From assembly GCA_951406725.2 (NCBI GenBank), contig OX597815.1, positions 209,808,001 to 209,872,000 of the forward strand: a DNA stretch of 64,000 nt. Reading direction: 5' to 3'. The notes below the pieces were generated by a model, which saw only the letters and a list, made by a program, of their open reading frames with translations, made no database searches and was not told where the DNA came from. Both the position numbers and the translations under genes were made by a program. This DNA is from Octopus vulgaris (lineage: Eukaryota). Shown here one piece after another: positions 5,770 through 55,943 of this stretch (positions are counted from its first letter, which is position 1; every line of letters starts with the position of its first letter).

Positions 5770-6080
5770 CCCACCGAAAATTTTACCCAAAAATTTTTCG
5801 AAAATTTTCGCCAAGAATTTTTCGAAAATTTTCACCGAAAATTTTCCCCAAAAATTTTTCGAAAATTTTCGCCAAGAATTTATCGAAAATTTTCACCGAA
5901 AATTTTCCCCAAAAATTTCTCGAAAATTTTCGCCGAAAATTTTCCCCAAAAATTTTTCGAAAATTTTCGCCAAGAATTTATCGAAAATTTTCACCGAAAA
6001 TTTTCCCCAAAAATTTCTCGAAAATTTTCGCCGAAAATTTTCCCCAAAAATTTTTCGAAAATTTTCCCCCAAAAATTTTG
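5770..6080. repeat. A/T-tract minisatellite (GAAAATTTTC / TTTTCGAAAA cores, ~12-bp subunits, 98-bp higher-order unit)
   Basis: Repeated ccgaaaattttccccaaaaatttttcgaaaattttc; CAAGAATTTATCG recurs at 5873 and 5971. Confidence 0.9.
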
Positions 6081-7489: not shown

Positions 7490-7850
7490 TTTCGTAAATT
7501 TTCACCGAAAATTTACCCCCAAAAATTTTCGAAAATTTTCACCGAAAATTTTACCCAAATATTTTCACCAGCAATTTTTCGAAAATTTTTGCCGAAAATT
7601 TTATCCAACAATTTTTCGAAAATTTTCACCGAAAATTTCCCCCAAAAATTTTTCGAAAATTTTCACCGAAAATTTTACCCAAAAGTCTTTCGAAAATTTT
7701 CCCCAAGAATTTTTCGAAAATTTTCACCGAAAATTTTACCCAAAAATTTTTCTAAAATTTCCCCCAAAAAATTTTCGAAAGTTTTCACCGAAAATTTTCC
7801 CCAAGAATTTTTCGAAAATTTTCCCCAAAAATTTTAAGAAAATTTTACCC
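7490..7850. repeat. Second block of the A/T-tract minisatellite, same orientation, more diverged
   Basis: Same ccgaaaatttt-cccaaaaatttttcgaaaattttc units as 5770-6080. Confidence 0.9.
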
Positions 7851-16500: not shown

Positions 16501-16524
16501 TAGCATTATGTAAGTGCAAACGAA

Positions 16525-17476
16525 GCTGGCAGAATATTTAGCACGCCGGACGAAAGGCTTAGCGGTACTTCGCCCATCGCTACGTTCTGAGTTCAAATTC
16601 CGCCGAGGTCGACTTTGCCGTTCATCCTTTCGGAGCCGATAAATTAAGTACCAGTTACGCACTGGAGTCGACGTAATCGACTTAATCCGTTTCTCTGTTC
16701 TTGTTTGTCCCCTCTGTGTTTAGCCCCTTGTGGGTAGTAAAGAAATAGGTATTTCACACATCGCTACGTTCTCAGTTCAATTTCCGCCGAGGTCGACTTA
16801 ATAAATTAAGTTCCAGTTGCGTACTGGGGTCGATCTAATCGACTGGCCCCTTCCCCCAAAATTTCGGGTTTTGTTTCTTGAGTAATAAAGAACATCTGAA
16901 GGTGGCGAGCTGGTAGAATCGTTAGCACGCCGGGCGAAATGCTTAGTGGTATTTCGTCCGCCGCTGTGTTCTGAGTTCAAATTCCGCCGAGGTCCACTTT
17001 GTCTTTTATCCTTTCCGGGTCGATAAATTAAGCACCAGTTACGCATTGGGGTCGATGTAATTGACTTAATCCGTTCGTTTGTTCTTGTTTGTCCCCTCTG
17101 TGTGTAGCCCCTTGTGGGTAGTAAAGAAATAGGTATTTCGCACATCGCTACGTTCTCAGTTCAAATTCCGCCGAGGTCGACTTTACCTCTCATCCTTTCT
17201 AATCGACTGGCCCCCTCCCCCAAAATTTCAGGCCTTGTGCCTAGAGTAGAAAATATTATGTAAGTGCAAACGAAATTGGCTAGCTGGCAGAACCGTTAGG
17301 ACGCCGGACGAAAGGCTTAGCGGTATTTCACACGTCGCTACATTCTCAGTTCAAATTCTGCCGAGGTCGACTTTACGTTTCATCCTTTTGGGTTCGATAA
17401 AATAAGTACCAATTGAATACCGGGGTCGACTACTCCCTTCCCCCAGAATTGTTGCCCTTATAGCAAAATTGGAAGT
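16525..17476 (+). mobile_element. Nested cluster of SINE family B copies with two alternative tails
   Basis: Repeated GAGCTGGCAGAA..GTTAGCACGCCGG heads and GTTCAAATTCCGCCGAGGTCGACTTTGCC..CATCCTTTCGGGGTCGATAAATTAAGTACCAG bodies; ATTATGTAAGTGCA flank present three times. Confidence 0.9.
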
Positions 17477-35035: not shown

Positions 35036-35490
35036 GGAATTTGAACTCAGAACGTAAAGACAGACGAAATACCTATTTCTTTACTATCCACAAGGGGCTA
35101 AACACAGAGAGGACAAACAAGGACGAACAAACGGATTAAGTCGATTATATCGACCCCAGTACGTAACTGGTACTTATTTAATCGACCCCGGAAGGATGAA
35201 GGGCAAAGTCGACCACGGCGGAATTTGAACTCAGAACGTTGCGGCAGACGAAATACCTGTTTCTTTATTACCCACAAGGAGCTAAACATAGAGGGGACAA
35301 ACAAGGACAGACAAACGGATTAAGTCGTTTACATCGACTCCAGTGCGTAACTGGTGCTTAATTTATTGACGCCGAAAGGATGAAAGGCAACGTCGACCTC
35401 AGCGGAATTTAAACTCAGAGCGTAGCAGCAGACAAAATACCGCTAAGCATTTAGCCCGGCGTGCTAACGTTTCTGCCAGCTCAATGCCTT
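35036..35490 (-). mobile_element. SINE family B multimer (head + ~2.3 units)
   Basis: Single head at 35440-35490; GACGAAATACCT[A/G]TTTCTTTA junctions at ~35063 and ~35247. Confidence 0.9.
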
Positions 35491-40315: not shown

Positions 40316-40900
40316 AGGCATTGGTCGACCCGGGGCTATAGCAGAAGACACTTGCCCAAGATGCCACGCAGTGGGACTGAACCCGGAGCCATGTGGTTGG
40401 TTAGCAAGCTACTTACCACACAGCCACTCCTACGTGCACGTTTCACAGTTGATAGAACGCCTAGATGCGACAGACTTGCTCCAAGAATGTCTATACGAGA
40501 TCAAAACAAAACACACCGAAGAGTCACTTGGTTATGTCCCTAGCTAAGGTTTTCTCCTATATTTTTCATTCAAATAATTTTCCATTATTTTGTTCCAGTT
40601 TATATACAACTTGTTTTACCTTAATCCAAGTCTTCCTTGTTTATATCTCATGCTAGTTACTCAAATTTTTGTACATCTCATCTCTATATTTCTTTTGCTC
40701 TGTCCCTTTATCTTTATAATTCATTTTGCTCTCAGCGATCATGATTTCTTAAGATCTGTCACTAATATAGCAATAACTTGCTCCAATCTACCGGTCCCAC
40801 CTTTACTTTTGTCTTTCTGTTACATTTTCTATGTTTTTCTTTTATTCTTTTGCACGTAAAATATTAATGGTCAAATGGCCAACATTTATATATTGTATAA

Positions 40901-41872
40901 GGCGGCGAGCTGGCAGAAACGTTAGCACGCCGGGCGAAATGCTCAAACGGTATTTCGTCTGCCGTTACGTTCTGAGTTCAAATTCCGCCGCGGTCGACTT
41001 TGCCTTTCATCCTTTCGGGGTCGATTAAATAAGTACCAGTTACGTACTGCGGTCGATATAATTGACTTAATCCGTTTGTCTGTCTTTGTTTGTCCTCTCT
41101 GCGTTTAGCCCCTTGTGGGTAGTAAAGAAATAGGTATTTCGTCTGCCGCTACGTTCTGAGTTCAAATTCCGCCGAGGTCGACTTTGCCTTTAATTCCTTC
41201 GGGGTGGATAAATTAAGTACCAGTTACGCACTGGGATCGATATAATCGACTTAATCCGTTTGTCTGTCCTTGTTTGTCTCCTCTGTGTTCAGCCCCTTCT
41301 GGGTAGTAAAGAAATAGGTATTTCGTCTGCCATTACGTTCTGAGTTCAAATTCCGCTGAGGTCGACTTTGCCTTTCATCCTTTCGGGGTCGATTAAATAA
41401 GTACCAGTTACGTACTGCGGTCGATATAATTGACTTAATCCGTTTGTCTGTCTTTGTTTGTCCTCTCTGCGTTTAGCCCCTTGTGGGTAGTAAAGAAATA
41501 GGTATTTCGTCTGCCGCTACGTTCTGAGTTCAAATTCCGCCGAGGTCGACTTTGCCTTTAATTCCTTCGGGGTGGATAAATTAAGTACCAGTTACGCACT
41601 GGGGTCGATATAATCGACTTAATCCGTTTGTCTGTCCTTGTTTGTCTCCTCTGTGTTCAGCCCCTTCTGCGTAGTAAAGAAATAGGTATTTCGTCTGCCA
41701 TTACGTTCTGAGTTCAAATTCCGCTGAGGTCGACTTTGCCTTTCATCCTTTCGGGGTCGATTAAATAAGTACCAGTTACGTACTGCGGTCGATATAATCG
41801 ACTTAATCCGTTTGTCTGTCCTTGTTTGTCCCCTCTATGTTTAGCCCCTTGTGGGCAGCAAAAGAAATAAGG
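40901..41872 (+). mobile_element. SINE family B pentamer: one head + five 184-bp units
   Basis: Units start with GTATTTCGTCT at 40950, 41134, 41318, 41502 and 41686; 14-bp TSD TATATATTG[T/C]ATAA at 40887-40900 and 41873-41886. Confidence 0.95.
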
Positions 41873-42404
41873 TATATATTGCATAAAAGTGGATGTCAAA
41901 GATGTAAGAAAACAAAAAAAAAAAAAAAAATCGAGGCAAAAATTAATCCTAATAGTTTGTAGTACAGGTCAATAAATTGATTTCCTGTGAGAAAAGTTTG
42001 TCTAAAACCTTAAACGTTTTACTCTTCATAGCAAAAGAACTTACCAAATATCCATCGAAATTTTCCAAAGAAGCAGTATTTTGATGATAAAGACCCATAT
42101 ACGAAGCATGGTGAAGAGTTGTTTTACAGACGTTGGCAGCAGGTGCCAAAATGTATGAAGAGGATTGTAAATTGTTGATGATGACGATAACGATAATATT
42201 GATTACGACGCTTGTGGATATTAATTTCCTACGTTTGCTTGTGATAACGTTTTACACGCAAACAATGTAATTCAAAGGACACATTAATGTAATACGACAT
42301 TTTGCAAGATAAACAATTATATGTTTACATTTATATAAGCACATACAAACCGCTACATACGCAGAATACGTCAGGGAATTGCTTAAGTATATGAAAAAAA
42401 ATAT

Positions 42405-54249: not shown

Positions 54250-54631
54250 TATAATGTTTTGACAACAGAGATAATCCAGATAGGGGTCTGAAAACAAAAA
54301 GAGTTTTGGGAAAGTTAAAAGAGCATGGAGTAAATAACAGCAAAATCCCTGTAACTTACAAATGTGAGTTCCAAGCAAAAGATAGAAATTTGTTATACTG
54401 GAAGAAACTTAACAGTTGGCAGAAAAGCGTAAGATTTTTTGAGTCCTCACTGAGTGCAGTGCAGTGCCGGAATATATTTTAATGCTCATTAAGACCATGC
54501 ACGTTGGCGGGATTTAAACGCATAAATAAATGTCTTAGGTAACTGACAAGCTGACTGTCGCTGTAGGGAACACTTTTTGAAACATTTGTTTTAAATTAAT
54601 TTGGCAAGTGAAATAATCAAATGTACTATAT

Positions 54632-55231
54632 TCTTCTTTACTACCCACAAGGGGCTAAACACAGAGAGGACAAACAATGACAGACAAACGGATTAAGTCG
54701 TGTACATCGACCCCAGTGCGTAACTGGTACTTATTTAATCGACCCCCGAAAGGATGAAAGGGAAAGTCGACCTCGGCGGAATTTGAACTCAGAACGTAAC
54801 GGCAGGCGAAATACCTATTTCATTACTATCCACAAGGAGCTAAACACAGAGAGGACAAATAAGGACAAACAAACGGATTAAGTCGATTACATCGACCCCA
54901 GTGCGTGACTGGTACTTATCTAATCGACCTCGAAAGGATGAAAGGTAAAGTCGACCTCGGCGGAATTTGAATTCAGAACGTAACGGCAGGCGAAATACCT
55001 ATTTCATTACTACCCACAAGGAGCTAAACACAGAGGGGACAAACAAGGACAGACAAACGGATTAAGTCGAATATATCGACCCCAGTGCGTAACTGGTACT
55101 TAATTTATCGACCCCGAAAGGACGAAAGGCAAAGTCGATCTCGGCGGAATTTGAACTCAGAACGTAGCGGCAGACGAAACACTGCTAAGCATTTCGCCCG
55201 GCGTGCTAACTTTTCTGCCAGCGCGCCGCCT
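54632..55231 (-). mobile_element. SINE family B trimer
   Basis: One head plus three ~184-bp units; perfect 18-bp TSD TAATCAAATGTACTATAT at 54614-54631 and 55232-55249. Confidence 0.95.
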
Positions 55232-55943
55232 TAATCAAATGTACTATATATTTGATTGGCTCAGCAGTTAAGATTTTTAAAAAATAATTATAATGTTGTT
55301 ACTACTGTCATTGGACTTGCTACTTTTGACTTTATACACTTAAAATTTTAATTAATAGATCTTCTAGTCAAATTGTATTTATCTATGGAACTGAAGGGTA
55401 TAAATTTAAATTAGAAATCATTTGAAGCAGAATGAAATTGCTTAATTTAAAGTTCAATCTCCCATTTTATCTCCTCTTTATACGGCTTCTCAATGTTTAT
55501 GGCTACCTGAGTTAAGAAACAGAGATGGAACAGGTAGAAGGAAAATGATGTTTAAAGTGATAAAAGAGTTGTTAGACAAGAATAAATGCAAAAACCAGGC
55601 AAAGATGCTTTTGGTTTCACAGACAGAAACAGAGCAAGAATGAGAGGGGAAAAGAAAAGGGTATAGAGTATCTATGGGATGGAGTAAGAGTGCTTATCTG
55701 GTTAAGTGAGAAGCGATGGGATTAACTGAAAGTAAAGAAGAAGATAAATAAAAAAAAATATGGGAAGAGACAGTGCATGAACCGAGTGAATAGGGACCAC
55801 AGAGAAACAGTAGATCAGGAGAGTATTTGGATGATAATGCAGCATATAATGAATGGAGTAAACAGAAACAGGAGAGAGGGCGCACATAAACTATGTATGA
55901 AAATTGATCTGCTCATTTGAAAGAAACAAAACAAGAATGAAGA

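Follow-up and report, generated by a model that had tools for sequence, protein, structure and literature searches.

The window analysed here, a stretch of 64,000 nucleotides from Octopus vulgaris, contains a pentameric SINE array in which one tRNA-like head precedes five tandem units inside a single TSD (Table 1). Four of the units measure 184 bp and the last is slightly longer, periods of 184 and 368 are recovered by TRF, and all four junctions between parts of the array are identical in sequence. Units 1 and 3 differ from each other at 3 sites and units 2 and 4 at 2, against 18-20 differences between the two variant classes that an earlier note on this DNA had termed A and B. That note had described a head and five 184-bp units within one TSD, alternating A-B-A-B-A as a 368-bp higher-order repeat, and both the structure and the alternation are borne out. 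Read depth agrees with the assembled copy number: in run X1, which may be the source sample, the contig with the private variants of units 2 and 4 has a depth of 141 vs 69 in the flank, which indicates that the reads contain two copies of these variants and that an assembly error does not account for the 368-bp duplication.

Unit 3 is a hybrid and unit 4 a copy of unit 2, as results from unequal exchange between the first and third units of a trimer; by this route the middle 368 bp of an original trimer was likely duplicated to give the pentamer, with unit 5 likely representing the original host copy. The units lie ~5% from the consensus, compared with 2 differences between the two 368-bp copies. 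No exact copy of the unit-2 motif was found elsewhere in the genome, and three one-mismatch matches to this private motif, considered as parent or daughter of the pentamer, proved to be unrelated copies. Contigs under four organism labels span one or both ends of the insertion, and the flanks in the three other labels diverge by ~1-2%, which implies that the pentamer insertion predates those splits. One or both ends are likewise reached by contigs of X2, X4, X7 and X8, and no locus-private internal contig was seen for X2, X4 or X8 among the matches listed. A fragment of a different, very high-copy repeat adjoins the left flank of the array on its upstream side; contigs of other loci join this repeat directly to the SINE head, which suggests that the two repeats are frequently adjacent.

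Table 1. Coordinates of the SINE arrays in the window and their parts
Feature	Position	Strand	Remarks
Pentamer, 5' TSD copy, 14 bp	40887..40900	+	13/14 match to 3' copy
Pentamer, tRNA-like head with 13-bp hairpin	40901..40949	+	49 bp
Pentamer, insertion site in head (first base of hairpin 3' arm)	40949/40950	+	
Pentamer, unit 1 (118-bp body and 66-bp A-type LINE-like tail)	40950..41133	+	
Pentamer, unit 2 ('B' variant of the earlier note, but A-tailed)	41134..41317	+	private motif exact in pentamer only
Pentamer, unit 3, hybrid (5' part as unit 5, 3' part as unit 1)	41318..41501	+	
Pentamer, unit 4 (copy of unit 2)	41502..41685	+	2 differences
Pentamer, unit 5, terminal, A2-like tail	41686..41872	+	~187 bp
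Pentamer, range with 2 x 368-bp local duplication	40992..41797	+	breakpoint between unit positions 43 and 113; 2 differences/368 bp
Pentamer, 3' TSD copy	41873..41886	+	
Trimer 54632-55231 with its TSD	54614..55249	-	TSD 18/18 at 54614-54631 and 55232-55249
Head, 2 A units and first 37 bp of a further unit	35036..35482	-	
Composite head-A-B(old)-head-A-B(partial)	16524..17253	+	20-bp TSD

Three further arrays had been reported for the window. The trimer at 54632-55231 is confirmed together with its 18-bp TSD, and its unit variants are mostly unshared. The multimer placed at 35.0-35.5 kb contains two complete units, whereas that at 16.5-17.2 kb is a composite rather than a pure 184-bp multimer. 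As had also been observed for the pentamer, no T4 run occurs in its units on the element strand, and none occurs in those of the trimer.

Parts and junctions of the SINE family

Models of the family were derived from 600 kb of evenly spaced stretches of the 2.80-Gb genome plus the window (664 kb). Each element is assembled from a 48-bp head, a shared body of 118 bp and a tail of 66 bp (A) or ~46 bp (B), the two tails being about equally common in the 664 kb and a third type being present besides them. The family displays the traits of the SINE class in being short, non-coding and dispersed, with high copy number and TSDs. In the head, ARAGORN detected no tRNA gene and Rfam returned no tRNA match; its A- and B-box-like motifs, and with them the A-box label, are putative, and body positions ~48-88 presumably resemble the Meta/CORE-type central domain of metazoan SINEs. 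The head forms a stable hairpin with a 13-bp stem (z -3.6), and the junction lies where the 3' arm of this stem begins, at its first base, as the earlier note had also placed it.

An exact junction 22-mer has 35,605 matches genome-wide, against 0 for its reversed control, and exact head-loop matches number 57,681. Exact matches account for only 8 of the 22 junctions of the unbiased sample, which puts the true number of junctions near 1e5, with a wide error. The fixed junction that the earlier note had described is borne out; both junctions of the window's trimer carry AATGAAATAG, a small variant of the string that had been quoted. The 32 A-tailed elements of the unbiased sample comprise 19 monomers, 6 dimers and 7 trimers. 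In nearly all internal junctions an A tail is joined to the first position of a body (245 of ~290 part joins); A-body-A has 17,144 matches and A-body-B 1,128, while a B tail leads to a body in 2 matches at one locus, compared with the full junction count for the A tail. The sole exact B-tail tandem, L126 (G000:C24:32711415-32714446), comprises four near-identical headless B units and apparently arose by local duplication. A rarer type of junction, with 9 cases, links the A tail to position 15 of the head; it runs through a short shared A-rich stretch and is usually followed by a B unit (L036, L065, L011, L026, L098, L203, L213). Elements of the form H-A-H-B number 10.

The head hairpin as an insertion target

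Within genomic DNA, the head junction serves as a target at which both nested copies of the SINE and a LINE have inserted with TSDs. A nested pattern of old head, TSD/start of body and new head was matched 92 times, or at 78 loci after neighbours had been merged by hand, against 12 matches (9 loci) for a control at a B-box anchor, although this anchor is 1.7-2.4x commoner. Of 28 nested loci examined, 22 resume the host body at position 1 directly after a tail. In 11, a base private to the host recurs on either side of the insertion and so identifies the repeat as a true TSD. The host remainder is missing in 6 of the 28, and some nested-pattern loci have one outer TSD, so that composites can move as a unit. 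Four loci (L189, L194, L202, L206) consist of a partial head, the start of a body and a full element without host remainder; the composites at L189 and L202 sit inside one outer TSD and seem to reflect unit transfer or a 5' template jump. Elsewhere, at L216 (G000:C5:87873285-87876328), L196 and several neighbours, heads and TSDs alone form tandem runs with a period of ~58-69 bp, which reach 21 heads in L216 and constitute a second mini-satellite seeded by head-retaining insertions.

At one junction lies a 4-kb LINE with endonuclease and reverse transcriptase remnants, a TSD and an A-like tail. Its endonuclease match is weak (E 6e-5, with PF03372 below cutoff), its reverse transcriptase matches RVT_1 (E 1.5e-11), its best PDB match is LINE-1 ORF2p (E 2e-4), and its homologues carry endonuclease and reverse transcriptase domains together with PF13966. 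We take this partner to be a putative Tx1-type element. The last ~50 nt of the LINE 3' end align with the A tail, and the B tail is dissimilar. Of 303 candidate LINE 3' ends, 40 were scored; among the 30 best-scoring that were fetched, 28 lie at the SINE head site, in hosts that are B in 12 cases, A in 10 and other in 6. Five elements (L328, L331, L334, L335, L337) have ~440 bp of the LINE 3' end in common and differ upstream, and are possibly non-autonomous passengers at the same site. Another stretch of 80 kb that was scanned contained no LINE at the head site. The foreign-looking 3' end of L162 was set aside as a LINE family, being unique in the genome, as were the internal deletions of L112 and L252 as truncated in-place insertions, since these carry A-type 5' sequence.

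Away from the head, target preferences differ between tails: the 5' TSD copy starts with GG in 8 of 21 A1-ended vs 0 of 26 B-ended elements, and the targets of B-ended elements start with AAT/ATT in 17 of 26. The GG-starting off-target sites of A1 elements would fit priming through pairing of the RNA 3' end.

Growth of the arrays

Arrays that start with A units and end in a B unit allow the ages of their parts to be compared, with the proviso that most loci were selected through exact-match patterns and that contig C1 contributes many of them. Over 90 shared sites in 74 such chimeras, the last unit has 6.8 differences and the first 3.6; the last exceeds the first in 59 and falls below it in 8 (p 3e-11). 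The switch to B alleles is located at the junction, and B alleles run from body position 15 in 93 of 133 chimeric B units (27 of 36 in monomers). In a mixture fit, TSD mismatch amounts to 9.7% in 62 chimeras, 8.2% in 22 B monomers and 5.1% in 78 A-only elements, the difference between chimeras and A-only elements being of modest significance (p 0.03) and that between B monomers and A-only elements not being significant. Among 46 chimeras, TSD mismatch and last-unit divergence were uncorrelated. An old TSD and an old last unit with young units added are what would be expected if A copies had entered an old B insertion.

Junctions have been made many times independently. Every combination of diagnostic alleles occurs in dimers and trimers, which can end in an A1, A2 or B unit and whose rare variants are mostly unshared between units. 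No sibling families were detected among 111 arrays or among 133 chimeric B units; in the ~8,770 pairs that the latter form, two share at least 3 rare variants, and one of these two consists of loci on the same 6-kb stretch.

Longer arrays have a different internal structure. Most arrays have 2-3 units, a few of 7-11 units have homogeneous middles, and the longest seen reach about 11. In arrays of at least 4 units, unique variants make up 0.4% of middle units, vs 2.4% for the first unit and 1.8% for the last A unit, whereas trimers show ~2.7% at all three positions; variant sharing between units of long arrays is stair-like. Arrays of at least 4 units, the pentamer included, have likely been extended or homogenised in place after insertion by local DNA duplication. 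In having tandem units from part of a SINE and an extended terminal unit, the arrays show one trait of a SINE-derived satellite; another, long homogenised arrays with 4 or more middle units and up to hundreds, may be approached by the few of 7-11 units. One of them, L104, has the same 20-bp tail deletion in four A units and a B unit at its end.

These observations are probably best explained by arrays that grow in place through self-targeted SINE insertion, those of at least 4 units being lengthened later by local duplication. An A-tailed SINE would insert at a single base of the head hairpin in an existing family copy, with endonuclease and reverse transcriptase presumably supplied by the L1/Tx1-like LINE that targets the same base. 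The RNA 3' end would prime on the start of the target, and the head of the new copy would anneal to the homologous host head to give a seamless 5' joint, as in R2. Each event would then add one headless 184-bp unit within the old TSD of the host and, as every junction rebuilds the target, stacks of 2-3 units of mixed subfamilies could accumulate before local DNA duplication extends some to 4 or more. That the usual 5' joint would be seamless follows from the retention of an old head in ~1% of arrays, a rough correction that assumes a detection of ~0.2. Arrays have mostly not moved as units, and some unit transfer is possible. Of 116 eligible elements, among them multimers, 56 lie within a single TSD (null 0 of 150); such a TSD, from which the earlier note had inferred unit movement, is no proof of it because seamless insertion into an older copy keeps the TSD of the host.

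Several results count against in-place growth. Chimera heads look young from end to end, with 2.5 differences compared with 2.1 for A heads and 4.3 for B heads and an old-head share of 0.21 (95% -0.09 to 0.55), so that the cDNA would mostly have to overwrite the host head. Independent sequential insertion also does not predict that the 77/80 haplotype is concordant in 21 of 23 A-A dimers (p 1e-4), the haplotypes being without age difference; in AAB trimers it is concordant in 8 of 14. A-only arrays show no age gap between first and last units, and local exchange is visible in body positions 60-118 (4 shared rare variants vs a null of 0.1), which may not be the full cause of the agreement in A-A dimers. 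No orthologous pair of monomer and array was seen.

A template jump during a single insertion is an unlikely though live minority alternative; the earlier note had suggested jumping on RNAs cut in the loop. Reverse transcriptase working on any family RNA, often the transcript of an old copy, would stall at the head hairpin and continue on an A RNA from its 3' end, and multimers would thereby insert as units at new sites. Young chimera heads, the haplotype agreement, single TSDs around multimers, a 6-7 nt match of the A 3' end to the hairpin arm and the few composites with one outer TSD are all in its favour. It would nevertheless require old copies as routine templates, the TSDs of chimeras look as old as those of B hosts (p 0.03), the B tail is unlike the LINE tail, and the LINE and the SINE hit the same base in genomic DNA with TSDs; a site-specific LINE target fits the junction better than cut RNA.

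Ordinary nested insertion, giving old head, TSD and new head, could alternatively be followed by loss of one head through recombination between direct repeats of ~65 bp. Nested forms do exist, and head repeats do recombine, as the head-only runs attest, but such loss predicts mostly old 5' head sequence in place of the young heads observed, and would have to be nearly complete, given that the 78 nested loci correspond, after correction for detection, to so small a share of tens of thousands of arrays. This course of events is very unlikely.

Still less probable is the spread of the junction by one or a few dimeric or multimeric masters, with unequal exchange altering unit number. Of this earlier proposal, unequal exchange survives for long arrays, where local duplication accounts for at least 4 units, and the haplotype agreement of dimers speaks for a shared source; a single master does not survive, given that all haplotype combinations and A, A2 and B last units occur, that sibling arrays are lacking in the sample and that junctions formed de novo in nested loci. 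Unlike in an Alu-like fixed dimeric master, position-specific diagnostic alleles and sibling copies are absent. As a general source, masters are largely refuted, and for part of the A-A dimers they could still hold.

Non-LTR retrozymes are composed of tandem 150-400-bp repeats dispersed by retrotransposition, and rolling-circle reverse transcription of a 184-nt circular RNA in their manner, also raised in the earlier note, would explain an exact unit length, a fixed junction and the near-identity of long-array units, but is scarcely credible, since units of dimers and trimers carry mostly unshared variants and mix subfamilies, long-array identity is limited to middle units, the junction fold is ordinary compared with shuffles (z 0.44) and no ribozyme match at E<=10 was returned by Rfam. 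Unlike retrozymes, the octopus units had no ribozyme found in them and are not copies of one template. A known RNA family or ribozyme was set aside after Rfam gave three chance-level, non-ribozyme matches, as were HDV, hammerhead, twister and pistol folds, judged by eye.

In-place growth, the preferred reading, lends itself to a broader proposal that is evenly balanced in our judgement: the SINE may have gained its tail from a LINE whose target is the head of that very SINE. Each insertion would then overwrite the head of the host by annealing, lengthen the stack by exactly one unit and restore the target, yielding ~1e5 junctions, and the LINE endonuclease, by nicking junctions repeatedly, may also drive the duplications that lengthen and homogenise arrays.

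Comparison with known systems

In crocodilians, SINEU-3 and Tx1-Mar LINEs share a common target inside another transposon, and sequential insertion produces tandem copies (PMC4494074). The octopus SINE and LINE similarly have the same target in a transposon, but the target of SINEU-3 is a Mariner element and a TSD lies between its tandem copies (PMC4494074), whereas in the octopus the SINE is itself the target, at its head, and an extra head and TSD are missing from nearly all stacks. The 5' joint has a counterpart in the 'anneal' junctions of R2 and PRINT, in which the cDNA 3' end pairs with homologous upstream target to give a seamless joint without duplication (PMC11331408); R2 is an autonomous RLE-type element of rDNA studied with engineered templates, while the octopus joint would be made by a non-autonomous SINE in its own copies (PMC11331408).

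In the squamate sSat, part of a SINE is repeated in tandem, the terminal unit is longer, dimeric and trimeric patterns alternate and longer arrays are homogenised (PMC10702118). The octopus arrays resemble it in their partial-SINE units, longer last unit, alternation and the homogenised middles of their few long arrays. Seeding of sSat is ascribed mainly to unequal recombination, whereas site-specific retrotransposition at a fixed junction would seed the short octopus arrays at tens of thousands of loci (PMC10702118). Tandem HCD SINEs of bivalves amount to ~3% of copies, include TSD-(SINE)n-TSD forms and are ascribed to recombination between TSDs; both systems are multimers of mollusc tRNA SINEs, but 13 of 32 A-tailed octopus elements are multimeric and their units are headless (PMC11481361). 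Octopus repeat papers report abundant SINEs and L1-Tx1, and their accessible text makes no mention of the headless-stack structure (PMC13282606, PMC8967140). No report of a SINE targeting its own head was found in a literature search confined largely to openly accessible papers. If arrays do grow in place with later local duplication, as is probable, the octopus system would represent a target-specific SINE/LINE pair that is new in targeting its own head.

Direct evidence for a route from SINE to satellite is scarce (PMC10702118). The octopus arrays support the amplification from SINE to tandem repeat that the earlier note had envisaged, and offer a concrete, testable route from interspersed repeats to tandem arrays as well as what would be a natural, genome-scale case of homology-resolved 5' joining, otherwise seen mainly in engineered R2. 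They also carry two warnings: one TSD around a multimer does not prove movement as a unit, and copy ages and subfamily trees of a dominant repeat blend events of different age. Tandem repeats of another kind occur in the window as well, at 5772-6079 and 7496-7850, where AT-rich minisatellites are built from AAAATTTT-based subunits with periods of 24/37/61/98.
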